From: Patescibacteria group bacterium | Lineage (GTDB): Bacteria; Patescibacteriota; WWE3; UBA101185; UBA10185 | Length of the DNA: 64,000 bases | Assembly (NCBI GenBank): GCA_018825365.1 | Contig: JAHJEV010000003.1 | Location: 238,619-302,618 of the forward strand | Direction: 5' to 3' | Part shown: piece by piece, positions 4,494-30,601 of the stretch | Numbering within the stretch: the stretch's first letter is position 1 | Layout of the letters: each line of letters starts with the position of its first letter | Made by a program: the position numbers and the translations under genes | The notes under the pieces: model-generated | What the model was told of the DNA's origin: nothing | Databases searched by the model: none | The model's input: only the letters and a program-made list of their open reading frames with translations

Positions 4494-4507
4494 AAAAAAA
4501 GCGGGGC
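4484..4507. terminator. Bidirectional intrinsic terminator hairpin
   Basis: The hairpin is GCCCCGC / A-rich loop / GCGGGGC with T/A runs on both sides. It lies 3' of the 4535..6577 gene. Confidence 0.55.
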
Positions 4508-4534
4508 TTTTAAAACTACTTAATAATAAATCCT

Positions 4535-16012: not shown

Positions 16013-17242
16013 ATGAGCAAATCCTTCCAAAAAATCGTATTTGTAGGCTTTGGAAACGTATTTAACGCCATATTGGGGTTTGCGTTCATATCCGCATCGG
16101 CAAAGATATTAGACCTTGAATCCTTTGGAAAATACGCTCTTTTGACCACACTTTTAGTTGCCATATCCAAGCTTATAGATTTCGGCACAAATTCCGTTTA
16201 TGTCGCCAGAGCAATATCAACCGAGGACAAAACGCTTAATAATACCTTCTACACTCTAAAAATCATCCTTCTCACGGCGTCCATTCCGGTATCAATGATT
16301 ATTCTCTTAATATTCAGGCTAACTAGCCTCCATCTGACTTTGTATTTCATCTTAGGACTTATTGCCTATTCCATTAATTACACGCTTGCGCCGATTTTCC
16401 AAAAACTGGAAAAATTCACTCACTGGGTTTTGTTAAACACTCTACCGGCATTGATCAAGGGGACATTTGCAATTTTAATGTTTACAAATTTAATTGCGCT
16501 AACTCTTCCACAAGCATTCGGGGTATTTTCACTTTCTCTTTTTGCAAGTGTCTTTTTAGTATTTTTTGTTCCCAAAGAATACAAAGAATTTAAACTTAAT
16601 TTTTCAAAAATAAAAACTATCCTAAAGGAAGCAGCCCCAGCAGGGCTATCCTTACTTATCTACGAGGGCTGGCCATCAATAAGCAACGCCATAGCAAAAA
16701 TAGCTAAAGACTTTTCAAATGTAGGAATATTCGCCATTGCAGAAAAAATTACAAGCATATTGGCCTTAGCATCAGTGTCTGTATTTACAGTTCTTCTTCC
16801 AAAAAACGCTTACAGGAAAAAACAAAAAGAAAATTACGATTTTAAAGAGATTTTTATGATATCTGCTCTTATACTTTTAAGTGCTTTTATAGGTATCTTT
16901 ATCTCTAAGTTCTTTATTTTAAGATTCCTGGGAGATAAATTCTCAGATTCTATCCCGCTTCTTGGATTCTTGATATTCGCAAGTGCCTTTACCGCGATAC
17001 ACAATTTTATGGAACATTACTTTTTCATTGAAGCCAAAACCAAATACATAATGTTTTTGAATGTCGGAAAACTGGCCTTGTTTTTAATCCTATCTGCCAT
17101 ACTCACACCTGCTTACTCTCTACAAGGATTGGCCATAGCAAATGTTATAGCAGCTCTGGCAGCTCTTGTTGCCACCACACTTATAATAAGTAAGCATCAA
17201 AAAAGAAGGTCTGTTTTAGAAGATAATCTAATACTTAACTAA
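16013..17242 (+). CDS. Wzx-like oligosaccharide flippase (polysaccharide biosynthesis protein, MOP superfamily)
   Basis: A ~409-aa protein with about 12 predicted TM helices and a PST-family-like N-terminus. Confidence 0.6.
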   Translation: MSKSFQKIVFVGFGNVFNAILGFAFISASAKILDLESFGKYALLTTLLVAISKLIDFGTNSVYVARAISTEDKTLNNTFYTLKIILLTASIPVSMIILLIFRLTSLHLTLYFILGLIAYSINYTLAPIFQKLEKFTHWVLLNTLPALIKGTFAILMFTNLIALTLPQAFGVFSLSLFASVFLVFFVPKEYKEFKLNFSKIKTILKEAAPAGLSLLIYEGWPSISNAIAKIAKDFSNVGIFAIAEKITSILALASVSVFTVLLPKNAYRKKQKENYDFKEIFMISALILLSAFIGIFISKFFILRFLGDKFSDSIPLLGFLIFASAFTAIHNFMEHYFFIEAKTKYIMFLNVGKLALFLILSAILTPAYSLQGLAIANVIAALAALVATTLIISKHQKRRSVLEDNLILN

Positions 17243-20088
17243 TTCTCAACTATTGGTACGTAGCCGCCAGCTGCCTTGGGAGTTAAGTACCATAAGACCC
17301 AATCACCATCTGAAGCAACTATATGTGATAACTGTGTATACCCATACACATTTTGAGAATACCTGCCCTCTTTGGTAATAAGTATTAAAGGCTCGTTGCT
17401 AGGGACAGTTGGAACTCTATCCTCAAGATCGGGTCTAAAATCCAATGTTTCAAACTGGCTTTTTGAGTAATAAAGAGCTGTTGGAAAATCTATTCTGTCA
17501 AGATAAACCTTATATTTAGTACCAAAAACCTTATCCTTTTTTACAAGCAATCTGGCCTGAGAACCATTTAGGTCTGATGTGTAAACCATTCCCCTATTTA
17601 GGAAAAGATAAAATAGCGAAAAGGTAAGTAAAAGATACAAGGACAGAAATTTGAAAAGATAAGTATTTGTAAATTTAACTCTTCGCATCACCAAATCCAA
17701 AGTTCTCTCCATAAAACTTCCAACTATCAAGCTTAAAACTGGATAAAGAGGAATTACATACCAAATAAGCTTTGACTTTGCAACCGAGAAAAACAAAAAC
17801 ATGCTTAAAGCCCAAATTGTTAAAAATACAAACCTTTTATCCTTCTTGAAAGATTTAAACAATGAAAACGGAAAAGCTCCCAAAAGCGCAATAAACCAAA
17901 TTCTCATACTGACTTTTAAGACAATCACGTACCAGAAAAAAGGTCTTCCTTTATCTTCGATTGCGCTAAAAGCTCTTCCTAAAACATGATAACCAATATA
18001 GTTTTTCAAAAAGCTCTCGCCAAATTGTACATACATATAAATATGCCAGGGAAGTGCTACTAAAAGACAAGATAAAAACCCAAGCAAATAGTTTAATACT
18101 AATCTTACAGAAAATTTCTGTTTATCAAAAATGAAAAGATATAACTCATAAAGAAAAATTACCAAAAGCGGTAAAAACCCCACCACTCCTTTTACCATCA
18201 CACTCAAACCTGCCAAAAGTCCCGATAAGATCCACAGATATCTTTTATCCCTTTCCTTTGCAAGCCAATAAATAAACAAGGATATTGTCGTGAAAAATGT
18301 CAAAGTAACATCAAGCATGGCCATTCTTGAGTAGTACAGGAAATGAACCGTTGTGATTAGAGCCAGTGCTGATATGAAAGCTGTAGTTTTGTTGAAAAAC
18401 TTTTTGGCAATCATAAAAACTAAAACCACAGTCGCCAAACCAAAAATTGCACTTGGAAGTTTAGCAGACAGAGATGTAAAACCTAAAAGATTCATAAAAC
18501 CTGCCTGCATCCACATAAAAAGAGGCGGCTTTTCATACCAAGGTTTCAAAAGAGTATCCCAATGCAAAGTAACATACTGATTACTAGTTACCATGTTTTT
18601 GGCAATCTTTGAGTATATTGCCTCATCCCAAGGAATTAAGTGATTTACCCCCACATTTATAAAAATTAGATACACCGATATCAATCCGAGAATTCCCAGT
18701 AAAAATCCCACTTTGGAGAAAAAGAAATTTATAATCTTTTTTAAATACCCCTGCCCGATCATTCCAATAGACCAGATTAGAAATATAAAATTAATAATCC
18801 AGAAAAACTCGGAATTATAAGAATAAAAAATTCCCGCTATATACCAACCCAAAACTGCCGACGCCATTCCCAAACCTACCAAAGATTTTGATTTATCTTT
18901 TTCGGTGAAAAATACATAAAGGGGAGCAAAAAGTGCTAAAGAACAAAAAAGGATATACACAGATGTCCCTACGATTCCGGTCTCCGATAAACTCTCGCCC
19001 CAAATCGTGTGGGCAGGAACCCGTGTGTTCAAGGCAGCCGGATCGCGACTAAAAAAAGTCGGTGCTATTTTTGTCTTGCTAAACTGTTCAAAAAAGGATC
19101 CGTAGCCACCGCCCAGTATTGGGTATTTCTCAAAAATCTGAACTGCCCCGGTTAAAAGCATAAGATGTGAATCGTATGAGTCTATTCTGTAATGAAAATA
19201 GTCCTTAACTTTTGCTCTAAAAACACTTTTTCTGTTTTGGTACATTAAAACCGGCGGCGTGGCTATGATTATTCCTGCAAGCAAAACGTACAGTAAACCT
19301 TTTGCTCCGAATTTCTTTAATACCAAAACCGTAACAAATGTGATAAAAGCAAAACCTCCAAGCATCCATGCGGTTCTTGAATTTGTGATAAGTAAGGATC
19401 CGAAAAGCATTATAAAAATAGCTAAGTCAATAATTTTTCTCTTCCAGGATTTATCGGTCAGTATAAAAACACCAAATACCGGTAAAACAGCTGCGATTAA
19501 TGACCCGTAATGGTTCACATCCCAAAAAGTTGAGCCTACTCTTGGAAATTTTCCGGGAACATTCCACAATGCCCCGATTATTTTTCCCGTCTTTTCGTAT
19601 AAAACAAGCTGGATAATTCCAAAAAGGGCTAAAGCAAAAACTATGTATATGTAAAACCTAAGGTACTTTAAAAGTTCCTGGGGGTTGTTCCTAAATACAA
19701 TATAAACATATATACCCAAGGCCACGACAGTTGCAAAAAATCCAAATAGGAAAAGACTCGCTTGTAAATTGGCTGAGAATATTATCGAAACTCCCCTGGT
19801 CAACCAAACAAGTAACAGAATCAAAATAAAAGGATCTTTCAGGTATCTAAGGACAGTTCTTAGGCTTTGTGTCTTTGCAACGTGAAAGTATATTTTTGTT
19901 ATGCCTGCGCACAAAAGCCCCAGCATAAAAACTCTTACAGGCATCAAATCCCATTTATAAAAGCTGAAAAGCTCTTTATGAAGCAAAACCGAAAGAACAA
20001 TCAAAACATATAAGGATAGCTTAAAGTTCCTTAGAATTAATATGTACGAAGCTATAAATATTACCAGTATAATCGCTATATCAATCAT
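17239..20088 (-). CDS. Fusion protein: N-terminal O-antigen ligase/Wzy_C-like polytopic domain and C-terminal ArnT/PMT-like GT-C glycosyltransferase domain
   Basis: Residues ~1-460 are polytopic with ...LITNSRTAWMLGG..., a Wzy_C-like motif. Residues ~470-790 contain ...WDEAIYSKIAKNM...KPWYEKPPLFMW..., the hallmark of the ArnT/PMT (GT83/GT39) family. A ~150-aa soluble C-terminal tail follows. Confidence 0.6.
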   Translation of the reverse strand: MIDIAIILVIFIASYILILRNFKLSLYVLIVLSVLLHKELFSFYKWDLMPVRVFMLGLLCAGITKIYFHVAKTQSLRTVLRYLKDPFILILLLVWLTRGVSIIFSANLQASLFLFGFFATVVALGIYVYIVFRNNPQELLKYLRFYIYIVFALALFGIIQLVLYEKTGKIIGALWNVPGKFPRVGSTFWDVNHYGSLIAAVLPVFGVFILTDKSWKRKIIDLAIFIMLFGSLLITNSRTAWMLGGFAFITFVTVLVLKKFGAKGLLYVLLAGIIIATPPVLMYQNRKSVFRAKVKDYFHYRIDSYDSHLMLLTGAVQIFEKYPILGGGYGSFFEQFSKTKIAPTFFSRDPAALNTRVPAHTIWGESLSETGIVGTSVYILFCSLALFAPLYVFFTEKDKSKSLVGLGMASAVLGWYIAGIFYSYNSEFFWIINFIFLIWSIGMIGQGYLKKIINFFFSKVGFLLGILGLISVYLIFINVGVNHLIPWDEAIYSKIAKNMVTSNQYVTLHWDTLLKPWYEKPPLFMWMQAGFMNLLGFTSLSAKLPSAIFGLATVVLVFMIAKKFFNKTTAFISALALITTVHFLYYSRMAMLDVTLTFFTTISLFIYWLAKERDKRYLWILSGLLAGLSVMVKGVVGFLPLLVIFLYELYLFIFDKQKFSVRLVLNYLLGFLSCLLVALPWHIYMYVQFGESFLKNYIGYHVLGRAFSAIEDKGRPFFWYVIVLKVSMRIWFIALLGAFPFSLFKSFKKDKRFVFLTIWALSMFLFFSVAKSKLIWYVIPLYPVLSLIVGSFMERTLDLVMRRVKFTNTYLFKFLSLYLLLTFSLFYLFLNRGMVYTSDLNGSQARLLVKKDKVFGTKYKVYLDRIDFPTALYYSKSQFETLDFRPDLEDRVPTVPSNEPLILITKEGRYSQNVYGYTQLSHIVASDGDWVLWYLTPKAAGGYVPIVEN

Positions 20089-21221
20089 TTTTTCTTTATC
20101 TCAAGAACCTTTTTGTAAACCTCCAAGGTTCTTTTAGCAGCATTTTCCCAAGTATATTCCTGTCTGATTTTCTCATCAATTAATGGTCTTGGAGCAAAAT
20201 ACTCTTTTTTGATAGCATTTTTAATAGACTTAATATCATCGGGCAAACAAAAGGATGCGTAACCTCCAAGATACTCTTTTGCTCTCAAACCTGATGCCAC
20301 CGCGTTAGTACCGCAATACAAAGCCTCCAAACTTGTAAGACCGGTTGTCTCAAACCAGCTGGCTGAGACACAGACCTTCGCATAATGATAGTAGGAAGGA
20401 AGATCCTTATAAGGAACGCTGTTTACATGGTGTACCCAATCGTATTTTTTGAAACACTTTTTTATAAGTTGATTGTATTCAAAATGTTTTATTACACTCA
20501 TCTGCCCTACAAGAACCAAATGCAAATCCAAAGATGTTTCTTCTCTTAGTTTTTTTACTGCCTCTATAATGCTGATTTGATTTTTCCTGGGCTCCACTCT
20601 CCCAACACATATTATGTAGTTATCAAACTTAAATACCTTTTCAAATTCTGTTGCCTCAATGTATACCCTTCCCACACCGTTTAAAACCTTTTCCCACCTG
20701 ATTTCAACATCAAATGTTCTTTTCAAATCCTCCGCTTCTCTTACAGTTTGAACTAAAACCGTATCTGCCATCTTAAGAACTTCTCTTTGCATATTCTTAA
20801 ATCCCTTAAAAACGCTGGTGAGTGTGGGTTTGAGCATTCTCCAATCAAACAAAGATTTGTAAACATTCTTGAAAGTGTCTCTTTTGAACTGGTCACTAAA
20901 TAAAATCTTGGAAATTCTTCTTATATCAAACACAAATTTATCGTCATATTTTTTCACCTCCTTGACATCGTGATGAATTGGTGAAAGTACCAACGGCTTT
21001 TTAAACTGCTTTGCCTTTTTGGCATAAAAGTATGTCTCAGGAGTCCAATCCAATTGAAAAACATGGATAAGATCATAAGACGCAGGATCATAATCTAAAT
21101 CAGTCTTTATATCCACCTCAACTCCAAGACGTCTCAACTCCTCGGCAGTGTGCTCAACCTGAATTCTATCCCCACCTCTTGTTTCCAAAAGACCTATTCT
21201 TCCCAACATTAAAACTTTCAT
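20085..21221 (-). CDS. Glycosyltransferase family 4/1
   Basis: It has GT-B architecture. The likely start is MKVLMLGR at 21221, 1 nt after the upstream stop. The ORF track extends the ORF to 21269. Confidence 0.65.
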   Translation of the reverse strand: MKVLMLGRIGLLETRGGDRIQVEHTAEELRRLGVEVDIKTDLDYDPASYDLIHVFQLDWTPETYFYAKKAKQFKKPLVLSPIHHDVKEVKKYDDKFVFDIRRISKILFSDQFKRDTFKNVYKSLFDWRMLKPTLTSVFKGFKNMQREVLKMADTVLVQTVREAEDLKRTFDVEIRWEKVLNGVGRVYIEATEFEKVFKFDNYIICVGRVEPRKNQISIIEAVKKLREETSLDLHLVLVGQMSVIKHFEYNQLIKKCFKKYDWVHHVNSVPYKDLPSYYHYAKVCVSASWFETTGLTSLEALYCGTNAVASGLRAKEYLGGYASFCLPDDIKSIKNAIKKEYFAPRPLIDEKIRQEYTWENAAKRTLEVYKKVLEIKKK

Positions 21222-21222
21222 A

Positions 21223-22368
21223 TTATTTATTAAGAAACTTCTGGTACAAACCCAAATAGTTACTAACAAACTTTTGCATCGAATATTCTTTTTCGACTCT
21301 AAGTTTGGACTTGTCCGAAATGATCTTTCCTTCCCCGCCGATTTTTTCGTACAAACCAGTCATTTTTTGAGCTAAACTGTGGGAATTACCTTTTTCAAAA
21401 TAATCAACAACATCATTCCCCACTTCTTTAAGTACCTCAAGGTTTGAACAGATTGTCGGAAGACCCATATATAAAGCCTCAATAAGAACAACCCCAAAAC
21501 CTTCGGCTACTGAGGGAAACAAAAACGCATCAAATGTTGAATAAAACTTAACCTTTTCACACTCATCAAAAAACCCTACGATGACAACCTTATCATTAAT
21601 TTTTAATTCTTTTGCTTTATTTTTTAACTCCTCCTCAAGTTTCCCTCCTCCAGCAATCATTAGGTAAAAGTCTCTCTTGTGAAAAAAATCCGATTTAAGA
21701 AACTTCTCAAATGCCTTCAGTAAAGTTATATGTCCTTTTTCTTCAGTTAGCCTTCCGACTGTTCCAAAAACAAAAGCGGTTTTGGGTATTTCATATCTTT
21801 TTTTAATTTCTTCTTCAAATTCCGACCTTTGATTTGGTGTAATATCATATTTTGTTGTATCCAAAGCATTAGGAATAACAACAAGTTTATCTTCTTTTAT
21901 TCCTTCACCGATTTTTATCTTTTTAACTGACAAGGTAAGAGCAATCTCCGCGTCAGAATATTTATTCACAAAACGCCTATAGATAAATAAATCTAGTTTC
22001 TTTCTAAACTTTCCTATTTGCCACTGAGAAATGGGGGTGTGGCTATGAGAAATTTTTACTTTCACACCAGCCTTGTTTCCTGCAACCAAAGCATTACAGA
22101 TAGCCTTAAGTTCGTGAGCATGGATAACCTCTATGCCTTTTTGCTTAATAAAAGTTACAAGTTCTTTAATGTATGGGTGGTCAATATCCTTTTTAATCTG
22201 CTTTACGAAAACCTGCGCACCCAATCTTTTAAATACTTCTGTCATTTCCCCATCCGGGCACCAGACATAAACCTCGTTTCCTGCTTTAATCATACCTTTA
22301 ACAAGATCGTTAACATGCCACTCCATTCCTCCATATTTTCCTGAGTTTAAAACATAAAGTATTTTCAT
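21223..22368 (-). CDS. Glycosyltransferase family 4
   Basis: It has the N-terminus MKILYVLNSGKYGGME... and the AEGFGVVLIEALYMGLPTICSN motif. Confidence 0.8.
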   Translation of the reverse strand: MKILYVLNSGKYGGMEWHVNDLVKGMIKAGNEVYVWCPDGEMTEVFKRLGAQVFVKQIKKDIDHPYIKELVTFIKQKGIEVIHAHELKAICNALVAGNKAGVKVKISHSHTPISQWQIGKFRKKLDLFIYRRFVNKYSDAEIALTLSVKKIKIGEGIKEDKLVVIPNALDTTKYDITPNQRSEFEEEIKKRYEIPKTAFVFGTVGRLTEEKGHITLLKAFEKFLKSDFFHKRDFYLMIAGGGKLEEELKNKAKELKINDKVVIVGFFDECEKVKFYSTFDAFLFPSVAEGFGVVLIEALYMGLPTICSNLEVLKEVGNDVVDYFEKGNSHSLAQKMTGLYEKIGGEGKIISDKSKLRVEKEYSMQKFVSNYLGLYQKFLNK

Positions 22369-23573
22369 ATTTTATTCATATTTTCAGATATCAGACTTAA
22401 CATTGTATAAACTTTACCTTCCCAGGTGTTTTTACTTGCCTGTTCTTCTCGAAGTTTTATCTTTTCTTGCGAATTTTCCTCAAGCGCCCTTCTTATATTC
22501 TGTGAAAACTCATTTGGGTTTTTAGCTATGTAACAAACTGAAGAAAAAGGTGTATATGAAGGTAAATCGGTTACAACAACAGGAAGGCCCGCGGCTAAAT
22601 AATCTAAAAATTTAACTGGGAAGCACCCACCAACAGTGTAATCATTTAGCTGATATGGAATTATCATGACATCAAAGTTAGCCAAATACATAGGCATATC
22701 TTCATATTTTTTGGTTCCCAAAAAGAATACGTTTTTAAGATCCCCAAACCCAAGCTGCTTTGAAGAAATATTTTTATCCTTCAAAGCCACCGGTCCGATA
22801 ACAACAAAAGAATACCCCGGATAGTCTGATGCTACTTTTTTGAATAGCTGCTTATCAAATTTGTACTCATCCAGCGCTCCAGTAAAAGCAATGATCGGAC
22901 GGGGGATGTTTATTAGGTTTTCTGGAACCTCTTTTATTCTGCTTTTTATTTTGATAAACCTGTCGTAATCACCAACGTTTGGTGTAAAATAGCAATTCGG
23001 ATTGTACTTTCTAAGTTTTTCAACAAGACCCGGAGTTGTTGCAAAAACAATATTTGCGCGGGATGCTAAGAGTTTCTCCTGGTCAGAAATTTTTTTCCTT
23101 TTCTCCAGAGTGTCATATTTTGGGAAAGCTTCATAATTATCCACACAATCGTAAACCAAAAAATCATGCTTTATATATTTCAGATAATTCTCCAAACCCT
23201 CAAGTTCAACATGATAAACCCAAAGAATAGTTTTTCTTTGACTATCAAATAGTTGCTGCGCGGCGGTATCTATCTTTTTTGCATGTCTGACAGAAAGATA
23301 CTTTGTAAAATGATGGAAGTTTAAAGGTGAAAAAATCTCCAAGAATTCCGCTTCTTTTTTTCTCCATGTGAAAAATCTACTTATTGACCACTTTCCCTGA
23401 AACAGATACTTCAAAAATATTCTTCCAAAATTTATCGGGGGGTCCACAAACAAAACATTATGACCAAGCTTTGGCAACCTTCCCATAACATGTCTTTTGT
23501 TTGTCCATAAGGGAAAGTCCCATAGCTGGTTTGAAAGGCAGATAACATTGTATTTATCTTTTTCTTGCGCCAT
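22365..23573 (-). CDS. Glycosyltransferase (GT4-like)
   Basis: It has a GT-B-like layout. The likely ATG start is at 23573 (MAQEKDKYNVICLS...). The ORF track extends the ORF to a GTG at 23639. Confidence 0.55.
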   Translation of the reverse strand: MAQEKDKYNVICLSNQLWDFPLWTNKRHVMGRLPKLGHNVLFVDPPINFGRIFLKYLFQGKWSISRFFTWRKKEAEFLEIFSPLNFHHFTKYLSVRHAKKIDTAAQQLFDSQRKTILWVYHVELEGLENYLKYIKHDFLVYDCVDNYEAFPKYDTLEKRKKISDQEKLLASRANIVFATTPGLVEKLRKYNPNCYFTPNVGDYDRFIKIKSRIKEVPENLINIPRPIIAFTGALDEYKFDKQLFKKVASDYPGYSFVVIGPVALKDKNISSKQLGFGDLKNVFFLGTKKYEDMPMYLANFDVMIIPYQLNDYTVGGCFPVKFLDYLAAGLPVVVTDLPSYTPFSSVCYIAKNPNEFSQNIRRALEENSQEKIKLREEQASKNTWEGKVYTMLSLISENMNKI

Positions 23574-23828
23574 ATATCTTAAGTAATTATAGAGTAAACA
23601 GAGAGAAATTACTTCAGAAAATATATGCACATATAGCACCTAAAACATACCACACCATTCGATGATAGGTGAAAACCAAGATTTCTTTCCACTTCTTGCT
23701 TATAGAAAGTAACTAAAATTATGGCTTTTATAGTACAAAATAAGCAAAATTTAGATAATTTTATACTCATACGTAGCTTTACACCCTTAGGTACAGTGTA
23801 TAAACACGTTCCATCATAGTTAACATTT

Positions 23829-24536
23829 TTGTTAACTGTGATAGAATGTACATACATGGATAAAGAACTAGCTCAGCAACTAAGCAAAAAACTAAAAATA
23901 TCAACTCCTCAGATAGTTAGAGAGGAGTATGAACTTATTATCCTAAAAGAACTGTTTTCTAGTTCCATAGGTGAAAAATTAGTATTCAAAGGCGGAACTG
24001 CCTTAAGACTAGGTTACGATTCCCCTAGATTTTCGGATGATTTGGACTTTTCCACTATAGGAAAGATAAAGGAAGATGTTTTTAAAAAAGCGTGTCAAGA
24101 CATAGCAAATTCCAATCAAAATCTATCCTTAGTTGAGGCTTTAGAAAAAGCATATACTCTTTTTGCGCTCTTCAAGATTAGTGACCCTTCTCTATCACAA
24201 AATTTTAGTATAAAAATCGACATCTCTATAAGAAAGATTGACCTTGTAGAAGGTAAAGATTATGTACCTCTATTATTAAAAAGCTCCGTATCTCCAATAA
24301 ATTTAATTGCTAACACTACAACTCTTGAGAAAGTTCTTTCAGATAAACTTGATATTAGTCCAAAAAGAATAAGGGACATATTTGATATTTGGTTTGTTGA
24401 ACAAAGGTTTGGAAATGTAAGTAAGAAGATGGATTTTTCTCAATTTGGTAAAAACGAGGTAAGAAGGGAGCTTAATAGATTACTTCCAATAAGCTATAAA
24501 AGTCTTATAGATGGTTTAACTAAAACAAATGAATAA
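23829..24536 (+). CDS. Nucleotidyltransferase, AbiEii/AbiGii toxin family (DUF1814/COG2253)
   Basis: The ...KLVFKGGTALRLGYDSPRFSDDLDFS... motif is typical of AbiEii-type NTases. It is on the opposite strand from the surrounding glycan genes. Confidence 0.75.
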   Translation: MLTVIECTYMDKELAQQLSKKLKISTPQIVREEYELIILKELFSSSIGEKLVFKGGTALRLGYDSPRFSDDLDFSTIGKIKEDVFKKACQDIANSNQNLSLVEALEKAYTLFALFKISDPSLSQNFSIKIDISIRKIDLVEGKDYVPLLLKSSVSPINLIANTTTLEKVLSDKLDISPKRIRDIFDIWFVEQRFGNVSKKMDFSQFGKNEVRRELNRLLPISYKSLIDGLTKTNE

Positions 24537-25110
24537 TTTAAATGCTTTACAAGAATTACAGAAGTATAAAAAGGATTTCTATACTATTAGAGATCTACAA
24601 AATATATTTAATGTACCCGTAAAGTCTCTAAGGGTACAACTTTCAAGATGGTGCAAACGGGGAGTTTTTATTAGACTCACAAAGGGTATCTACACTCCCT
24701 ACAACACTGATATAGAAGTAGATAAGGTTGCTAATCAAATATATTATCCATCCTATTTATCTTTCGAAAGTGCTTTAAGCTATTACGGTATTTTAAGCCA
24801 AATTCCTTATACTTTAACTTTTGCTACACAAAAGAAGTCGAAGAAATTAGTATTAAAAGATACACAAATAGAATATACACAGTTAGCTAACAGGTTATTC
24901 TTTGGATATATTCTAGAAAACGGTATTTATTTAGCAACACCGGAAAAAGCTTTGATGGATACAATTTACCTAGTTTCAAAAGGTAACAGAACTTTGAATA
25001 TTAGTGAGTTATACCTAAAGAATATTGATAAAGAAAAATTCAAAGAGATTTCTTTAAAGTTCCCAAAGAACACTAAGGATATGGCTACAAGAATTATTGA
25101 AAATATCTAA
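24529..25110 (+). CDS. AbiEi-like antitoxin/transcriptional regulator (COG5340-type)
   Basis: It has an N-terminal wHTH (...LSRWCKRGVFIRLTKGIYT...) and a C-terminal SYLSFESALSYYGIL...ATPEKALMDTIYL region typical of AbiEi. It overlaps the NTase by 8 nt and lies downstream of it, which is the reversed order. Confidence 0.65.
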   Translation: MNNLNALQELQKYKKDFYTIRDLQNIFNVPVKSLRVQLSRWCKRGVFIRLTKGIYTPYNTDIEVDKVANQIYYPSYLSFESALSYYGILSQIPYTLTFATQKKSKKLVLKDTQIEYTQLANRLFFGYILENGIYLATPEKALMDTIYLVSKGNRTLNISELYLKNIDKEKFKEISLKFPKNTKDMATRIIENI

Positions 25111-25560
25111 GCTCTATTCTCTGGCATCAGCCTAATCTAAATTTTAATAAAGCAACAGCCTCTTCTTTTAAAATTTTACTTATCGAGTTGAATCTCACAT
25201 CTATCCATGTTTGCTTAACATGTACACTTATGTACATATTACCGCAACCAATTTTCTTGCTGTTTAGTGTAAATAGCTAGAATTTATTCACTAGTGATCA
25301 TCCAAATAATCGTTTCATTTATCGACTCATTATGATACGATAATTCGTCTTCAACGCAGACTGGTTCAAACTTGTTCCCTATGACTTGCTCCCCCACGAC
25401 TAATCAACACGAGAAAACACATACTTTATATTGATAAATATCGTACTACAACATAAGTCGTATTTAAAAGAAATCCTGGTTTTCAGTCGTCAACGTTGTG
25501 AAAGCTCTTACTGGTAGCATAAATCCTCGTGACTATTGGTTTAAAATGAAGGGGGGTTGA

Positions 25561-25585
25561 GTTGTCGACACTTTGTCGACAACTG
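25561..25585. promoter_or_regulatory. Nested palindrome (putative operator)
   Basis: In GTTGTCGAC-ACTTT-GTCGACAAC the 9-bp arms are exact reverse complements. Each arm contains the self-complementary core TGTCGACA, present as two copies at 25563-25570 and 25574-25581. Confidence 0.4.
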
Positions 25586-25627
25586 AAATTAGTATCATCC
25601 GATGATTGTTGCACTTTGAGGTGAAGT

Positions 25628-25644
25628 GGTGACAACTTGTCACC
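25628..25644. promoter_or_regulatory. Perfect inverted repeat GGTGACAA-c-TTGTCACC
   Basis: An 8+8 bp inverted repeat shares the half-site TTGTC/GACAA with the upstream palindrome. It overlaps the possible TTG start of the small ORF. Confidence 0.4.
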
Positions 25645-25690
25645 AGTTGAAAATGCCCCAGCCGATGAAAAAAATTGTTATTATTCGAAT

Positions 25691-25897
25691 ATGAATAGTG
25701 CCAATGAACAACTAATTGAATATAGAAGAAAGTATCAAAATAAATGGGTTGCTTTAGATAAAACGACCTCCGCAGTTTTGTATAGTAATAAAAACCTTAA
25801 AAGCCTAGTTAAAAAAGCAGATGCTGCGAGTAGAGAGTATGTGTTTGAAAAGGTCTTACCTATAAATACTGCGTTCATTCTCTACTCCCACATATAA
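25691..25897 (+). CDS. Small hypothetical protein (possibly DUF5678-like)
   Basis: The sequence ...YRRKYQNKWVALDKTTSAVLYSNKNLKSLVKKA...FEKV resembles a small 'KWVAI...V..sgdsleel..kA' family. The start is ambiguous (TTG at 25637 or ATG at 25691) and there is no clear RBS. Confidence 0.3.
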   Translation: MNSANEQLIEYRRKYQNKWVALDKTTSAVLYSNKNLKSLVKKADAASREYVFEKVLPINTAFILYSHI

Positions 25898-25997
25898 ATG
25901 TGAAATATACAAAGTGGCCCTACGAAGACACAAAGATTTTAGAGCTGATGAAATAAACATAATCTGTTTCTGATCGACTTACGCCCCACCTTATAAT

Positions 25998-27383
25998 CTA
26001 AAGGCACTTGGGACAGGCTTTGTCTAAAAGCTTTAGCTTAACCATAACTCTTCTCACATTAAACATAAATTCCGAGTCTTTAATTGACCAAAGCCAGGAT
26101 GTGTTTTTGTTACCCTGATCATAAGCGGCATGCCATATACCATCGAAGAAAAACATTCCAAATATCTGAACAAGAACAGAGAAAATTAAAGTTCCAATAA
26201 AAGCCTTTTTGTATTTTTTATAAATATCAGAATTTAAAAAAGGAACGATCAAAAGAATTAAATAAGGAATAACGTCCGAGCTCATTCTGTAACCAAATGA
26301 GTAACCTCCATACCAATGCTTCCATAAACTTATGATAAAGGTGTGAAAGATTACAATAAGGAAATAAACTAAATATTGGATATTTTCGTGCCAGCCTTTT
26401 CTCATAGCAATACAAAAGCCAATAATAGAAAACACAAAAATTGGAGAATAAACCAAAATACCTTTACTCGGAGACAACCAAACACCAATCAAACTCACCG
26501 GGAAGGGAGACACCCAACTTCCCAAAAGCTGGGTTGCATAACCTTGGTTTTGTATACCTACATAGTATTTGTTGTTATACCAAAGAAAAAATAATACGTT
26601 TAAAGCAAGTCCCACAAGAATACATAGGGCTGCCTTTGTAAAGATTTTTAAATTTGCTGATTTCATAAAAACCAATGTCACAATAAAAGCAAGGCCTAAT
26701 AGTGCTGTCGGACGGGAAAGGATTGCTAATCCGAAAAACAAACCCGACAGAAAAACGTCTGGAAGCTTCTTATCTTTGTCCATGCTGTTTAGGTAGTTAA
26801 GAATAAAGTAAAGGCCTAAGATTGAAAACATTTGAAGAGTCCCGTGTTGCCACATTGACTGAGAAACCATCGCAAAGTTTACCGTTCCAAAAATATAAGC
26901 GATTGTAAGAAGTAAAGATTTCTTCTCATCAAGAAAGTGCTTTTTGAGCAAGATATATAAGAACGTTCCGGAAGCCGAAACTATTAACATTGAGGAAATC
27001 TTTGATAAGAAAATCATATTTTCCCAAGTTACAGGCATACCAAGTTTTATCGGAAGATAAAATACCGGGAGAGATACTAAAGGAGTGATAATAGGAAAAG
27101 CTGAAAGATAGTGATTATTAACTTTTTCTAGGTAATACGGGGTTAGTCCCCTAAGTTGATTTTTGTCATCCGGTTGGGGATACCTTTGAATCATAGTATT
27201 GTAATAGGAATCCAGATACAGAGTCTTTTCCTTTATTATCGAGGCGGGAAGAAATAACGCAGGGACAGTATCTTCAGATTGGACAACAAGTCTGTTTATT
27301 CCTGTTTTATAAACGAATATCCAAGAAAAAAAGAGTACAAAAAAAGAAATAAAAAATAATTTTAGTGAAATATATTTTCCCAT
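25998..27383 (-). CDS. Polytopic membrane protein, putative GT-C-type glycosyltransferase
   Basis: A 461-aa protein with more than 10 predicted TM helices and an extracytoplasmic loop after TM1. No soluble catalytic motif was found. Confidence 0.4.
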   Translation of the reverse strand: MGKYISLKLFFISFFVLFFSWIFVYKTGINRLVVQSEDTVPALFLPASIIKEKTLYLDSYYNTMIQRYPQPDDKNQLRGLTPYYLEKVNNHYLSAFPIITPLVSLPVFYLPIKLGMPVTWENMIFLSKISSMLIVSASGTFLYILLKKHFLDEKKSLLLTIAYIFGTVNFAMVSQSMWQHGTLQMFSILGLYFILNYLNSMDKDKKLPDVFLSGLFFGLAILSRPTALLGLAFIVTLVFMKSANLKIFTKAALCILVGLALNVLFFLWYNNKYYVGIQNQGYATQLLGSWVSPFPVSLIGVWLSPSKGILVYSPIFVFSIIGFCIAMRKGWHENIQYLVYFLIVIFHTFIISLWKHWYGGYSFGYRMSSDVIPYLILLIVPFLNSDIYKKYKKAFIGTLIFSVLVQIFGMFFFDGIWHAAYDQGNKNTSWLWSIKDSEFMFNVRRVMVKLKLLDKACPKCL

Positions 27384-27456
27384 TGATTTAATAATACATT
27401 ACGGGGGCCATTTTGGAGATCATAAGAGTATTTTACTACCACTGCGTATGGAGAAA

Positions 27457-27729
27457 TTACTTATAATTTTCTAATAGTTTAATGTAGTAATCCTTAAAAT
27501 TCTCTGACCATTTCTCCGCGTATGTCTCGTTTTCAACCAAATTTCTAAGATCAATAAGTATATCTTTACCTCGTAAATTACTTATCTTTTTTGATAACTT
27601 CTCAAAAGCACTTTTTGTAGTATAAGACTCTGCGCCATCTTTTAGTAATTTTTCCTTGTTAGGAACAATTTTTCTGTTTCTGTATTCGGGATAGTTAACA
27701 TATTTTGTATACCATCTTAAATAGAACAA
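27457..27729 (-). CDS. Hypothetical small protein
   Basis: A 90-aa charged, K/E-rich protein with no recognisable motif. Confidence 0.3.
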   Translation of the reverse strand: MFYLRWYTKYVNYPEYRNRKIVPNKEKLLKDGAESYTTKSAFEKLSKKISNLRGKDILIDLRNLVENETYAEKWSENFKDYYIKLLENYK

Positions 27730-27870
27730 AACCTCAGGAGTTTTAGTTTCTATGAGCTACTGAGATAAGACAAAAGAATTTCTTACACCTTGTTTAGGCA
27801 TTACTATGAAATTGGGAGAAATTTATTAATTTGTGCAAAAGTACCACAGATTATCTATATTAACCCGTTT

Positions 27871-29556
27871 TTACCTAAATTTGTATAAAATCGCCGAATT
27901 CATCGTAACGGAACCCGCTTCTATAACCTGTAAAAATTTGAAGATCCTACGCTCGGATGGACCCTCCCCTTTGAAATCAATAATGTGCACAAGTTGGGGG
28001 CTATTCTCAAAAAAAACTGCGCTCTCGCTTTTGTCGACCATATAAAAATAAACCAAATACTTCGCACCCATGTATTGAGCTTCTTCCAGCCCAGAAGCGG
28101 TATTAAGAAGGTTTGTGAAATCTTCAGACACAAAACCCGTTGGTTTACTTTCATAAAATCGAGGATTTATTAGAGGTTGCTTATAAGCCGTCATCCAAAA
28201 AATAGCTTCGTTGGTTTTACTGTAGGGATATATAACCACAGGAGACTTTGAGAAGGCCGTTGTTCCAACGTATGAGTAAACTTCTGGTGGGGATCCAATA
28301 TGGGTTACTTTTAATGGGATAAAAAATTCAGAGACACTAAAAAGTGCCAGGATTACGAGAACAGATCGTATTACTAAAGGATTTATTTTCCTACTAGTCA
28401 ATAGATTTACCAACGCGCGGTAACCGTATCCGGTAAATATCAAAGTCAAAAACAAAATTAAAATACCCGCCCGTACCAAAACCCTAAACATCGGAAAAAT
28501 TTCAAACAGGATGTAACTTGGAGAATAAAACGTCATGTTTTTTAGGATAAACACTGGAGACATAGTTAAAAGTATGAGTGCGATGGTGGTTATTAAAAGT
28601 GCCGGGTAATTAATAGGTCTATCTCGTTTGGAACGAAATAACGAAAAAATCCCAACCAAAGCCAGGATCGTGTTTACCCAACCTAGATAAGAGGCGGAAT
28701 GTTCAGCTTTAAAATAGTTTTGTGTTAGATAATTTCCTCCGCTGGAGAGTTGATTTAAAAATTGTTTTGAAAGTTCACCGAAGAAAGGGTTGTCCACGGA
28801 GGGCAAAAGATAATACCAAGGCCGCGAGGAAAAGACTATGAAATCCTCAAAAGGCCTATTCAAAGCCTTACTGTCGGTATTTTCCTCTATCCGTGCTCTA
28901 GGCGCAAAAAAATTAGACTTTACGTAGGGTGCTAAAAATGTGGCTGAGAGAAAAATAAATACCACCAATGTTTTAACAATATCTCTCCAAGATTTTTTTA
29001 TAACGTTAATTTTTGACTCAGAAAAGATAAACTTAAACACCAAATAGATTGAGGTAAATAAAAGCGTAAAGTATCCGAGGTAGTTACTGATTCCAATAAT
29101 TAAGGTCAGTAAAAGTCCTAAAAATACAGCCTTGTGACGACTTTTAGAGAAAAAAAGAGTATCCAAAAACCAAATCACTGGCCAAAACTGCAGTAAGTCA
29201 ATATGCGAGCGACTCTGATAAGCTAAATAGGGACAACTTAGCAGTATCGTGGCTAGCAAAACTGCAACAAAGCGTCCAAAAATTTTCTTAAAAAAACGAA
29301 AAGCAAAAAAGAAATTTAGAGCCAGGCCGCCTAAAACTATAAGATTGTAAGCGAGTATGGGGTCGATCAATTTTGCGAGTAAAAAAACGGGAATAAAAAT
29401 TAAAGGTTGGTTATTGGCAAACAAATTTTGACAAATGCCAGTAGGATAACCTAAATAATCAGTGCAGCCCACTAAAACGTTGCTAATATGGCGGGGAATT
29501 GCAAAAAAACCCGCGTTGTCCTCTATAATGCCTATAAGATAGTTATTAAGAATCAT
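27871..29556 (-). CDS. Polytopic membrane protein, putative GT-C/YfhO-like glycosyltransferase
   Basis: A 561-aa protein with many TM helices in the first ~420 aa and a C-terminal extracytoplasmic domain. Confidence 0.4.
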   Translation of the reverse strand: MILNNYLIGIIEDNAGFFAIPRHISNVLVGCTDYLGYPTGICQNLFANNQPLIFIPVFLLAKLIDPILAYNLIVLGGLALNFFFAFRFFKKIFGRFVAVLLATILLSCPYLAYQSRSHIDLLQFWPVIWFLDTLFFSKSRHKAVFLGLLLTLIIGISNYLGYFTLLFTSIYLVFKFIFSESKINVIKKSWRDIVKTLVVFIFLSATFLAPYVKSNFFAPRARIEENTDSKALNRPFEDFIVFSSRPWYYLLPSVDNPFFGELSKQFLNQLSSGGNYLTQNYFKAEHSASYLGWVNTILALVGIFSLFRSKRDRPINYPALLITTIALILLTMSPVFILKNMTFYSPSYILFEIFPMFRVLVRAGILILFLTLIFTGYGYRALVNLLTSRKINPLVIRSVLVILALFSVSEFFIPLKVTHIGSPPEVYSYVGTTAFSKSPVVIYPYSKTNEAIFWMTAYKQPLINPRFYESKPTGFVSEDFTNLLNTASGLEEAQYMGAKYLVYFYMVDKSESAVFFENSPQLVHIIDFKGEGPSERRIFKFLQVIEAGSVTMNSAILYKFR

Positions 29557-29710
29557 AGCTCTATAGATATGTTATCAAAAATAACGGTACAAACCCAGCT
29601 CGGCGACCGATTTTATAAGCAGTGACAGTGGTATTTTTATTAATTAGATAGTTGATGTAAATCTCCTCACCCTGAGTGCTACCTAATTAACACGTATTTT
29701 AGTCGTGAGT

Positions 29711-30601
29711 TTAAATGTCATTCCCAATAGCTGAGTTAATTTTTATAACAGATGTGAGTTCTTTTATACTCATAAGAGGACAGTTCGCGATGTAATCTTC
29801 GTGTTTTTTCTCACCAGGTGAAGCTCCGATAGTCTCTATTGAAGAATATTTATTTCCTCTTACCTTCAGAAATGCCTGTGCCAGACTTTTTAGTTTAAAC
29901 TTTTTTGTATATTCCAAAGGGTAAAATATTTTACTACTGTCAGGATTAGTTGCTAATCCCACATCTACTAAAAACTTAGCGGCATCAGGAATATTAATAA
30001 AATACCTTGTCATTTCTGGATCAGTTATCTTTATTTTATTATCTTTTTTAAGCTGTTGTTCCCACAAAGGCAATACAGAACCCCTGGACCCTAAAAGATT
30101 TGGGCATCTAGCAATAATAAAAGTTGTGCCACTGTAAAGGTCAACACTCTCCTTCACAAGATACTCTGCAAGAAGTTTTGTAGCACCATAACAATTAGTA
30201 ACGTTTATTGCTTTATCTGATGAGACATATATCAAACGTTTAATAAGTTGGCTCGAATTCAGAATATTTAGAAGTCCGAGTATATTAACTCTGTGCGCTT
30301 CTCGAGGGTTTTGCTCTGCTAAAGATACATGCTTAATTGCGGCTGTATGGAATACAACATCGATGTCCTTCATTGCGTTAGCAATAAGTTCCTTATCAGC
30401 GATATCTCCTAGTTTAAACCTAACAAAACTGGAATTTATTTCATTTTCAGCTTCTTTTATTAGTCCTTCATCTCTGCTAATTGAAAGTATTTTCTCTGCC
30501 CCAAGATCCAAAAGTCTTTTGATAATATTTCTTCCTAACGAACCGCTCCCCCCAGTTATTAGAAATCTAGTATTTTTAATGGGTAACATTTTTTTATTCA
30601 T
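29711..30601 (-). CDS. NDP-sugar 4,6-dehydratase/epimerase, Polysacc_synt_2 (CapD/PseB-like)
   Basis: It has FLITGGSGSLGRNII..., ...FHTAAIKHVSLAEQNPREAHRVNILG... (compare PseB HAAALKQVP...NPMECIKTNI) and a YGATK YxxxK motif. Confidence 0.7.
   Translation of the reverse strand: MNKKMLPIKNTRFLITGGSGSLGRNIIKRLLDLGAEKILSISRDEGLIKEAENEINSSFVRFKLGDIADKELIANAMKDIDVVFHTAAIKHVSLAEQNPREAHRVNILGLLNILNSSQLIKRLIYVSSDKAINVTNCYGATKLLAEYLVKESVDLYSGTTFIIARCPNLLGSRGSVLPLWEQQLKKDNKIKITDPEMTRYFINIPDAAKFLVDVGLATNPDSSKIFYPLEYTKKFKLKSLAQAFLKVRGNKYSSIETIGASPGEKKHEDYIANCPLMSIKELTSVIKINSAIGNDI

Follow-up and report, generated by a model that had tools for sequence, protein, structure and literature searches.

Described AbiE-type systems

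The closest described relatives of the locus reported here are the AbiE systems of L. lactis (pNP40) and S. agalactiae. These bicistronic operons pair a two-domain winged-helix antitoxin of ~195 aa with a DUF1814/PF08843 toxin, a pol-beta-type nucleotidyltransferase whose motifs I-IV have been defined (PMC3985639). In canonical AbiE, the regulator gene precedes the nucleotidyltransferase gene (Dy et al. 2014; PMC3985639), and two 23-bp inverted repeats lie at the operon promoter. Thr65 has been described as the phosphoacceptor of S. agalactiae AbiEii (bioRxiv 10.64898/2026.01.19.700257). Abortive infection has been demonstrated for AbiE of L. lactis; S. agalactiae AbiE did not protect E. coli when challenged with 32 coliphages. 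Even among AbiE members that have been studied, a role against phages cannot be taken for granted.

Other families share parts of this architecture. The proteobacterial pairs RlegTA and SdenTA are validated DUF1814-COG5340 systems (Sberro et al. 2013). According to a preprint, the gene for the 205-aa COG5340 protein RlegA follows that for the DUF1814 toxin RlegT, the same order as in the pair described below, and RlegT carries Thr71 as the equivalent of the phosphoacceptor (bioRxiv 10.64898/2026.01.19.700257). SanaTA, from a plasmid of Shewanella sp. ANA-3, has a 136-aa DUF6088 antitoxin upstream of a 313-aa DUF1814 toxin (NC_008573, 21935-23283). Both SanaTA and RlegTA have a reported effect on T7. 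The MenAT pairs of M. tuberculosis (MenA3-MenT3 and MenA4-MenT4) are antitoxin-first, with COG5340 antitoxins and toxins of ~290 aa, and their proposed mechanism combines antitoxin-induced autophosphorylation of the toxin with modification of the tRNA acceptor stem. As MenT4 is not phosphorylated, this mechanism does not hold for every family member. Among type II systems, higBA, hicAB, and mqsRA have the toxin gene first as a fixed trait, and the antitoxin is still the repressor; neither their protein families nor their toxic activities are related to those of the pair described below.

An AbiEii-AbiEi gene pair in a surface-glycan cluster

The window, meaning the whole 64-kb stretch of DNA that was analyzed, comes from a Patescibacteria bacterium; the host is uncultured. 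On the plus strand, a gene for an AbiEii-type DUF1814 nucleotidyltransferase toxin (23856-24536, 226 aa) is followed by one for an AbiEi-type antitoxin/regulator (24529-25110, 193 aa). The AbiEi start and the AbiEii stop overlap by 8 nt (ATGAATAA). The true start of AbiEii is the ATG at 23856 and not the TTG at 23829. Apart from this pair and a small ORF at 25691-25897, all larger ORFs between 17239 and 30601 lie on the minus strand. The ORF map thus agrees with the preliminary description of the locus, made from the sequence alone, which had recognized the overlapping DUF1814 and AbiEi-like genes and their interruption of a co-directional minus-strand array. Profile searches likewise backed both of its family assignments (PF08843 and PADLOC for AbiEii; PADLOC and NCBIfam TAA_AbiEi for AbiEi).

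The toxin matched Pfam PF08843 (AbiEii) with 60.7 bits (cutoff 22.5) and the PADLOC AbiEii model with E = 1e-20. As in L. lactis and S. agalactiae AbiE, all pol-beta nucleotidyltransferase motifs were found, i.e., I (hGG), II (DhD), III, and IV (+DxxD), and the motif residues include G46-G47, S60, D62-L63-D64, and R173-D174-x-x-D177. Alignment of 28 toxin sequences revealed G46, G47, S60, D62, L63, D64, K164, R171, D174, and D177 to be invariant and R173 to be nearly so. The invariant serine lies two residues ahead of motif II (RFS60DD62LD64), where the two AbiE toxins also carry a Ser/Thr ahead of their DxD motif. S60 and D62 are the equivalents of T65 and D67 of S. agalactiae AbiEii, and S60 is a candidate phosphoacceptor.

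Structural comparisons placed the toxin in the same fold class as solved relatives. A profile search of the PDB matched JHP933 of Helicobacter pylori at 2.4e-9 and also matched MenT4. When the AF2 model of the toxin (pLDDT 92) was submitted to Foldseek, 4O8S was recovered at 6e-9 and MenT4 (6Y56), which has the same toxin fold, at 3e-5. JHP933 (PDB 4O8S / 4OK0), described as a plasticity-zone nucleotidyltransferase, is the nearest solved structure and also the best sequence match in the PDB; its size is similar (~230 aa) and its motifs are the same, at an identity of 20-21%.

The antitoxin belongs to the COG5340/AbiEi family. Residues 14-180 aligned with positions 7-184 of the 199 in the PADLOC AbiEi profile (E = 5e-33). 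The match to NCBIfam TAA_AbiEi (E = 1e-17, 64.5 bits) was under the curated equivalog cutoff of 150, and the Pfam AbiEi_4 score of 21.3 was under the cutoff of 25; PF13338 was present in most antitoxin homologs at ~50% identity. A winged helix occupies approximately residues 17-57 at the N-terminus, and the motif PSYLSFE..L..YGILSQIP (74-93) is invariant in family alignments. The AF2 model of the antitoxin was moderate (pLDDT 75.5), and its Foldseek matches were to wHTH proteins only, with 6Y8Q not among them. Consistent with the low sequence similarity to L. lactis and S. agalactiae AbiE, a sequence search of the PDB with the antitoxin yielded no match to a solved AbiEi.

Several features set the pair apart from the described systems. 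The toxin, at 226 aa, is shorter than those of L. lactis and S. agalactiae AbiE, and the gene order is the reverse of canonical AbiE, with the toxin ahead of the antitoxin. SanaTA, which the PADLOC AbiEii/AbiEi models also recognize, differs both in its organization and in the models that fit it best (PDLC02229 and PDLC02297, compared with PDLC02241 and PDLC02330 for the window pair). The pair is nonetheless a further member of the known AbiE family and not a new kind of system.

Promoter, putative operator, and gene order

A promoter scan identified a sigma-70-like promoter at 23820-23847 (+ strand), with a -35 box TTAACA, a 16-nt spacer, and an extended -10 box TGaTAGAAT; it was the best site (10/12 matches, with the TG). 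The -10 box ends 8 nt ahead of the AbiEii ATG, so that the mRNA would be leaderless or nearly so. A leaderless transcript, which we consider probable by analogy, would be a further difference from AbiE. A repeat search found an inverted repeat, the putative AbiEi operator, at 23806-23849 (+ strand), and its core TTAACA-TTTT-TGTTAA at 23820-23835 is a perfect palindrome over the -35 box. The operon resembles those of L. lactis and S. agalactiae in having an inverted repeat at its promoter, but where those systems have two 23-bp repeats, it has one 6-N4-6 palindrome. The region containing these elements (23711-23855, + strand) travels with the cassette: by blastn against L084, L085-L090, L135, and L144-146, it accompanies the close copies of the pair throughout, at 77-81% conservation.

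The operator motif is conserved in related loci. Of 65 toxin-first loci, 53 carry it, 52 of them with the 4-nt spacer of TTAACA-N4-TGTTAA; its median position is -32 relative to the toxin start codon, and the background was 0.07 per 150 nt. The exact motif was present as a single copy per locus in 45 loci, always on the + strand, and lay just upstream of the AbiEii start in every locus with known AbiEii coordinates. In the whole window, it occurs once, ahead of the AbiE pair. AbiE pairs with the same operator were found in unrelated contexts in many phyla.

Gene order was equally uniform. The toxin gene comes first in 74 of 80 genome loci, which are all of the related loci with an intact partner; contig ends cut four more, and the remaining two, both archaeal with 27% identity, are antitoxin-first. 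In a neighbor-joining tree, the 76 toxin-first sequences group in a single clade, inside which no other gene order occurs. Overlaps of 4-46 nt between toxin and antitoxin genes are usual across the related loci. Because all 74 intact related loci are toxin-first and fall in one clade, the order in the window does not reflect a local rearrangement. The preliminary description was correct that the order is reversed relative to canonical AbiE (PMC3985639), but as a local oddity the reversal does not hold, being fixed in a large subfamily. Taken across these loci, the comparison shows gene order in AbiE systems as a clade-level trait that is tied to a conserved operator. Such a trait is useful for annotation rules and helps in choosing members for experiments on the phosphorylation mechanism proposed recently.

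More speculatively, and with low confidence, we suggest that toxin-first AbiE pairs might form a separate architectural subfamily, undescribed before, that spans more than 10 phyla and is marked by a leaderless operon whose operator, TTAACA-N4-TGTTAA, is almost universal. Among Patescibacteria, the subfamily might move as a bare 1.4-kb cassette by a recombinase-independent route that prefers the junctions of surface-glycan clusters (which encode probable phage receptors), giving rise to small defence or addiction hotspots that turn over by deletion.

Insertion and loss of the cassette

The whole inserted segment is ~2.38 kb (23618-25997), as defined by alignment to the empty sites L096 and L097, by tblastn maps, and by the copies in L083 and L095. 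It is bounded by the conserved GT424 promoter region and the stop codon of M461. In tblastn maps of 49 metagenome loci, M461 and GT424 were adjacent in ~35 related loci, with gaps of ~10-160 nt; the closest empty site (L096) shares 74% amino acid identity and has a 52-nt gap. Since the flanking genes are directly adjacent in these loci, 23618-25997 is an insertion. At the M461/GT424 site, the AbiE pair was present only in the same species (L083 and L095) and in L084; across the pair, the three assemblies of that species share 99-100% identity. This presence/absence pattern bears out the earlier reading of the segment as an island or insertion and is not that of a conserved core pair with invariable flanks. 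The island is a real accessory island, and a fairly ordinary one.

Synonymous divergence was lower in the AbiE genes (dS of 0.53-0.85) than in the flanks (at least 1.95), though saturation and the cassette's strong AT bias may exaggerate this contrast. The cassette is found at two positions of the same glycan cluster, beside the relics of other modules. In L144-147, the toxin gene is cut in frame to 37 codons and the operator and AbiEi are intact; in L135, a promoter-operator scar alone is left at the same site. Decay of this kind resembles that of toxin-antitoxin modules. Intact, toxin-deleted, scar-only, and empty states are thus all seen at one site, and the locus offers a clean natural example of how toxin-antitoxin modules turn over within a glycan locus of the receptor type, here in a bacterium of the Candidate Phyla Radiation.

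As for the vehicle of insertion, no ORF for a recombinase (transposase or integrase) was seen, and no direct repeats or target duplication were seen at the insertion boundaries. A transposon, MITE, or integron cassette is not supported on these grounds and because a 19-nt inverted repeat around the pair is absent from L084.

Proposed mode of action and biological role

Judged from its sequence features, the locus is likely a functional AbiE-family toxin-antitoxin/abortive-infection module of the distinct and widespread toxin-first subfamily, carried on a cassette of ~1.4 kb (promoter-operator, AbiEii, and AbiEi) that entered a conserved surface-glycan cluster between two of its genes. By analogy with studied systems, transcription from the single promoter (TTAACA-16-TGaTAGAAT) would yield a leaderless or near-leaderless bicistronic mRNA, and the 8-nt overlap may allow AbiEi to be translated by coupling. 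The AbiEi winged helix probably binds TTAACA-N4-TGTTAA and represses the operon. We propose that the invariant AbiEi loop GILSQIP contacts the toxin and leads to autophosphorylation of Ser60, analogous to Thr65 of S. agalactiae AbiEii. Were the supply of antitoxin to fail, e.g., because a phage infects the cell or the cassette is lost, translation would be blocked by the nucleotidyltransferase, a step modeled on the MenT relatives, which modify tRNA acceptor ends.

The same mechanism could serve a purely selfish addiction module, in which loss of the cassette kills the cell, the glycan cluster is stabilized incidentally, and phage defence has no part; the two readings differ only in biological role. 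The lateral spread suggested by dS would suit such a module, as would the two positions in one cluster near relics, which fit the build-up and decay of toxin-antitoxin modules in variable regions, and the failure of S. agalactiae AbiE to protect E. coli. Relatives of the pair were not found on viral contigs or in PHROGs, and this lack of a link to phage sequences is compatible with a selfish element and bears neither way on defence. We nevertheless regard a purely selfish role as possible but somewhat unlikely. The cassette was cleanly lost in L135 and the toxin alone in L144, which indicates that loss is tolerated, and L. lactis AbiE, SanaTA, and RlegTA all have demonstrated or reported effects on phages.

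The adjoining 0.9-kb stretch and neighboring relics

The stretch that follows AbiEi (25111-25997) had been taken for ~0.9 kb of non-coding DNA with one doubtful small ORF; this is wrong in part, as the ORF at 25691-25897 (+ strand) is an intact, conserved gene of 68 aa. Its homologs fall in five clusters, at 76-88% identity and equal length. The protein is weakly DUF5678-like, scoring 17.6 bits against Pfam PF18929 over profile positions 4-46 of 49 (homologs 20-21; cutoff 23.2). Immediately downstream, at 25900-25956 (+ strand), alignments revealed an 18-codon in-frame relic of a retropepsin-like partner gene. The relic reads VKYTKWPYED/TKILELMK before its stop codon, and ~122 codons have been lost, the DTGA motif among them. 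L150-L152 retain an intact 142-aa partner with the DTGA motif, which scores 14-17 bits against Asp_protease_2 / gag-asp_proteas (cutoffs 24-28). Elsewhere, the module of small gene and partner adjoins tRNA-Gln. The suspicion of a degraded second module was therefore well founded. We conclude that the 0.9 kb lies outside the AbiE module and is a mosaic of debris that includes the small gene, now orphaned, and what is left of its protease-like partner.

All palindromes named in the preliminary description exist. An AT-rich hairpin, ATGTACA-ctta-TGTACAT (25220-25237, fold z = -3.5), lies within a 175-nt segment (~25121-25295) that is missing from L084. Repeat searches and folding identified two perfect hairpins spanning 25557-25644, the first (25557-25587) containing the TGTCGACA palindromes at 25563-25570 and 25574-25581, which have no other copies in the 64 kb, and the second (25628-25644) being the palindrome GGTGACAA-c-TTGTCACC.

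We considered whether the 0.9 kb could be a functional unit of its own, such as a noncoding RNA, a regulatory region, or the termini of a mobile element by which the pair arrived. A 45-nt element with three ATCGnnnTCAT repeats (25300-25344) recurs downstream of AbiEi in L084 with 44 of 45 positions identical, against ~85% for the adjacent genes; it has neither a fold signal nor a match in Rfam. The pair is bracketed by a 19-nt inverted repeat (left arm, 23670-23688; right arm, 25467-25485), whose arms are 18/19 complementary and are the sole copies in the 64 kb, and the region 25540-25660 has a fold z of -4.4. The significance of the 19-nt repeat is only suggestive, and both arms fall in segments that L084 lacks. 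With the same cassette at the same site, L084 is without the repeat arms, the hairpins, and the small gene; the hairpins at 25557-25644 were also not found at other loci that carry the small gene. Cassette copies at the second position in the glycan cluster (position B) stop at the AbiEi stop codon. Together with the lack of an Rfam match, transposase, integrase, or target duplication and the derivation of the small gene and relic from a module next to tRNA-Gln elsewhere, these data make a functional unit improbable.

Base composition also supports the insertion of the pair. The GC content of 25111-25997 (0.352) is higher than that of the AbiE genes, and the locally higher GC reported earlier holds in that comparison only, as the value is near the window mean (0.365). 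The compositional outlier is the AT-rich AbiE pair and not the non-coding stretch: its GC of 0.304 (vs 0.364; GC3 of 0.23-0.26 vs 0.31-0.37) ranks it among the lowest-GC segments of the window (4 of 628).

A relic of a second, antitoxin-first AbiE module, orf90 (27457-27729, - strand), was recognized by its match to the AbiEii of L084. Its residues 16-90 match the last 75 aa of that 279-aa protein (85% identity, E = 7e-42). This relic lies beyond the neighboring gene, outside the coordinates of the preliminary description.

Integrity of the AbiE pair

With relics all round (25900-25956 and orf90) and the toxin or both genes deleted in relatives, the pair could itself be a decaying, inactive remnant whose ORFs are open but functionless. 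We consider this very unlikely. Both ORFs are full length with all catalytic and family-invariant residues kept, the promoter and perfect operator are also kept, and the same-species assemblies are nearly identical. The AbiE genes are under purifying selection, with dN/dS values against L084 of 0.16 for the toxin and 0.06 for the antitoxin. This selection, together with the in-frame loss of the toxin beside an intact antitoxin in L144-147, lends indirect support to a toxin-antitoxin phenotype.

The idea that the pair is a domesticated regulator of the glycan cluster, with AbiEi as a transcription factor for neighboring glycosyltransferase genes and the nucleotidyltransferase acting on a sugar or nucleotide, is scarcely credible: close relatives also carry the pair inside glycan clusters, and a Mesorhizobium AbiEi is reported to have wider regulatory effects (PMC8436566), but the only exact operator in the window precedes the pair itself, the same pair and operator occur in unrelated contexts, ~35 relatives have the same cluster without the pair, and the insertion left the conserved GT424 promoter region intact.

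A plus-strand AbiE pair within a minus-strand glycan cluster

Across positions 17239-30601, every substantial ORF lies on the minus strand and has a glycan-type function, save for a plus-strand interruption by an AbiE pair. The minus-strand genes encode a 949-aa Wzy_C/PMT_2 protein, three GT4 glycosyltransferases, a 561-aa membrane protein, an epimerase, and a putative glycosyltransferase of 461 aa (M461; 25998-27383). The pair comprises the AbiEii gene (23856-24536; 226 aa) and the AbiEi gene (24529-25110; 193 aa), which overlap by 8 nt (ATGAATAA), and a gap of 887 nt (25111-25997) separates AbiEi from the M461 stop codon. No tRNA or tmRNA was found in the window.

The 226-aa protein is a DUF1814/AbiEii nucleotidyltransferase. 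It scored 60.7 bits against Pfam PF08843 (cutoff 22.5) and 1e-20 against the PADLOC AbiEii model, and a profile of 28 homologs matched the DUF1814 structures JHP933 (2.4e-9) and MenT4. Its AlphaFold 2 (AF2) model (pLDDT 92) yielded structural matches to 4O8S and 6Y56. Every catalytic motif described for AbiEii (PMC3985639) is conserved in the family. In our family alignment, G46-G47, D62-L63-D64, K164, R171, D174, and D177 are invariant and R173 nearly so, with R173-D174-x-x-D177 forming a motif IV-type stretch. Likewise invariant is S60, which lies two residues ahead of the DxD motif, the same placement as the phosphoacceptor T65 of Streptococcus agalactiae AbiEii (bioRxiv 10.64898/2026.01.19.700257). 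The viral contigs searched contained no relative of the toxin, and a PHROGs search returned no matches.

By family assignment, the 193-aa protein is a predicted AbiEi-type antitoxin. The PADLOC AbiEi profile was covered nearly in full (5e-33). NCBIfam TAA_AbiEi matched at 1e-17, the protein falling under the curated Pfam and NCBIfam cut-offs, and most homologs at ~50% identity carry PF13338. The AF2 model was of moderate quality (pLDDT 75.5), with the Foldseek match limited to the N-terminal winged helix, and no solved AbiEi was recovered when PDB chains were searched by sequence. Model confidence was lowest at residues 74-77 and 91-100, inside the most conserved sequence, PSYLSFE..L..YGILSQIP. 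A flexible loop of AbiEi is required for antitoxicity (bioRxiv 10.64898/2026.01.19.700257), and the low-confidence conserved stretch would fit this loop.

The toxin-first order is shared by a whole clade

The preliminary description had noted an AbiE-like pair in reversed order, and both this observation and its interpretation were supported overall. According to Dy et al. (PMC3985639), the regulator gene lies ahead of the nucleotidyltransferase gene. RlegA is stated to be encoded downstream of RlegT (bioRxiv 10.64898/2026.01.19.700257). A genome scan with a single protein as query gave nothing, whereas an alignment of toxin homologs retrieved 80 genome loci, in which both partners were located by HMMs built in this analysis. 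The toxin precedes the antitoxin in 74 of these, with an overlap that is nearly always 4-46 nt. Four others are cut by contig ends, and the remaining two are archaeal, with 27% identity, and antitoxin-first. Where a locus holds a more distant second copy, that copy is either antitoxin-first or solitary. Hosts include Patescibacteria, Chloroflexota, Actinomycetota, Aminicenantes, Bacteroidota/Ignavibacteria, Marinimicrobia, and Omnitrophota, among others. In a neighbor-joining tree, 76 toxin-first toxins formed one clade with no other sequence inside. A local inversion at this site can be rejected, because the order is clade-wide.

Among annotated plasmids with both partners matched, the closest is Ammonifex degensii pADEG01, which is toxin-first and annotated as AbiEii followed by AbiEi. 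At least 10 further plasmid records with both partners matched are antitoxin-first. SanaTA from the Shewanella ANA-3 plasmid (NC_008573.1, 21935-23283) was considered as a toxin-first precedent and rejected: the record places a 136-aa DUF6088 antitoxin upstream of the toxin, so that the "TA" of its name is no guide to gene order. SanaTA sits immediately upstream of a type I restriction-modification operon.

The pair belongs to a toxin-first subfamily of the known AbiE/DUF1814 family and is probably active.

A conserved putative operator overlaps the predicted promoter

The best promoter-like site of the region in a promoter scan was TTAACA-16 nt-TAGAAT with a TG extension (23820-23847). This site falls within an inverted repeat of 20 nt, with the perfect palindrome TTAACA-TTTT-TGTTAA at its core. 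Among 65 upstream regions from the clade, 53 carry the 6-N4-6 motif when ≤2 substitutions are allowed (background, 0.07 per 150 nt), at a median position of -32 from the start codon and with a spacer of 4 nt in 52 of the 53. In 45 loci the exact motif has a single copy, which lies on the plus strand in each and, wherever AbiEii coordinates are known, just upstream of the toxin start; the 64-kb window likewise contains it once.

The -10 element ends 8 nt ahead of the AbiEii ATG, and a Shine-Dalgarno sequence is missing, so the AbiE mRNA is probably leaderless. The overlap of the antitoxin start with the toxin gene implies that AbiEi translation would be coupled to that of AbiEii. A terminator scan found no plus-strand terminator after AbiEi.

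The pair was inserted at a variable junction

A metagenome scan with M461 as query returned 49 loci. The order M461-GT424-GT381-GT394-PMT949 is contiguous in ~35 of these, with 10-160 nt between M461 and GT424. The closest relative (L096; 74% amino acid identity) has a gap of 52 nt and no cassette. Window positions 23588-23617 and the empty sites of L096 and a second locus, L097, share a conserved block upstream of GT424, ATTATAGAG...AAATTAC..TTCAG. Read on the minus strand, this block contains CTCTATAAT, likely a -10 element by its sequence. Since the conserved GT424 promoter region is kept on the left, the inserted block spans ~23618-25997, in almost exact agreement with the segment originally delimited, and the promoter of the glycosyltransferase operon appears undisturbed.

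Among M461 relatives, the M461-GT424 junction (site A) is occupied by the pair only in two loci of the same species (L083 and L095) and in a related lineage (L084). The AbiE proteins of L084 are 84-89% identical to those in the window, compared with ~70% for the flanks. The dS values are 0.53 and 0.85 for the AbiE genes versus 1.95 and 2.77 for the flanks, a contrast subject to saturation and AT bias, and dN/dS of the AbiE genes is 0.06-0.16. L096 is nearer to the window yet empty, which favors lateral movement of the cassette. The pair is a compositional outlier, with a GC content of 0.304 versus 0.364 ± 0.021 and a GC3 of 0.23-0.26 versus 0.31-0.37. Further copies (59-81% identity) occupy the other side of M461, site B, in L003, L004, L107, and L085-L090. 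The traveling unit consists of a 110-145-nt upstream region and both AbiE genes.

Other loci preserve states of decay. In L144-L147, the promoter, operator, and a full-length, 85%-identical AbiEi are retained, and the toxin is cut in frame to 37 codons (L144, 3147-3838). At site A of L135 (778-1170), no AbiE genes are left between M461 and GT424, only a promoter-operator scar with the exact TTAACA-N4-TGTTAA. Site A of L099 (6462-7364) instead holds a split ORF on the opposite strand, judged by eye to be sulfotransferase-like, marking the M461-GT424 junction as a variable position of the cluster. We conclude that the pair was inserted as an accessory cassette and that the glycan locus accumulates and loses such modules. 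In kind, the object is ordinary, and neither the clade-wide operator nor the decay series, neat as they are, comes as a surprise.

The downstream stretch is a mosaic

The stretch at 25111-25997, initially taken to be ~0.9 kb of non-coding DNA, is a mosaic. That view fails for 25691-25897, a conserved gene with homologs of the same length in five clusters (76-88% identity); the stretch also holds a gene relic and other elements. The 68-aa product has a weak likeness to DUF5678. A TTG at 25637 had been proposed as an alternative start and is rejected, because the homologs begin at the ATG at 25691.

Elsewhere, the small gene lies directly downstream of tRNA-Gln(CTG) and overlaps by 4 nt the next gene, which encodes a 142-aa partner with a DTGA motif and weak retropepsin-type profile matches. 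This module of a 68-70-aa DUF5678-like and a 142-aa retropepsin-like protein adjoins tRNA-Gln(CTG) in several Patescibacteria (L150, 643-1280; L151; L152; L094, 2211-2848). L094 has a frameshift in the 142-aa-type gene, which L091-L093 and the window have lost by deletion. What is left of it in the window is VKYTKWPYED/TKILELMK plus the stop codon (25900-25956; the slash marks an in-frame loss of ~122 codons), which bears out the earlier suspicion of a degraded second module. The downstream non-coding stretch holds no tRNA-Gln fragment. Neither the small ORF nor the protease-like partner had a PADLOC match, and a literature search turned up no account of what DUF5678 does or of a retropepsin paired with an antitoxin. 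The ORFs of 75-83 aa that precede the small gene in L149 and L150 overlap tRNA-Gln and were therefore rejected as genes. In L091 (3226-3435), a 69-aa Cys/His/Asp-rich ORF with no family match lies between an NYN-domain gene and tRNA-Gln.

Downstream of AbiEi, a 45-nt element with three ATCGnnnTCAT repeats (25300-25344) is identical at 44 of 45 positions in L084 (2558-2602); neighboring genes of the two lineages are 71-85% identical. No copy was found on the viral contigs searched. A 19-nt inverted repeat (18/19) surrounds the pair (23670-23688 and 25467-25485); these are its only copies in the window, and it is absent from L084. Two perfect hairpins lie at 25557-25644. Rfam gave no credible match over the window at gathering thresholds or over 25000-26100 at permissive thresholds, including the 45-nt element, inverted repeat, and hairpins. 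When the 887-nt stretch was compared with all loci by tblastx and blastn, its only matching parts were the small gene, the relic, and the 45-nt element.

A relic of a second AbiE module lies beyond M461

On the far side of M461, orf90 (27457-27729, minus strand) corresponds to the last 75 aa of a 279-aa AbiEii of L084, with 85% identity. In L084, this antitoxin-first AbiE module is intact (4077-5572); ~1.25 kb, including a 223-aa AbiEi, is deleted from the window. The orf90 gene is the relic of a second AbiE module of canonical order, so that AbiE modules of both architectures flank M461.
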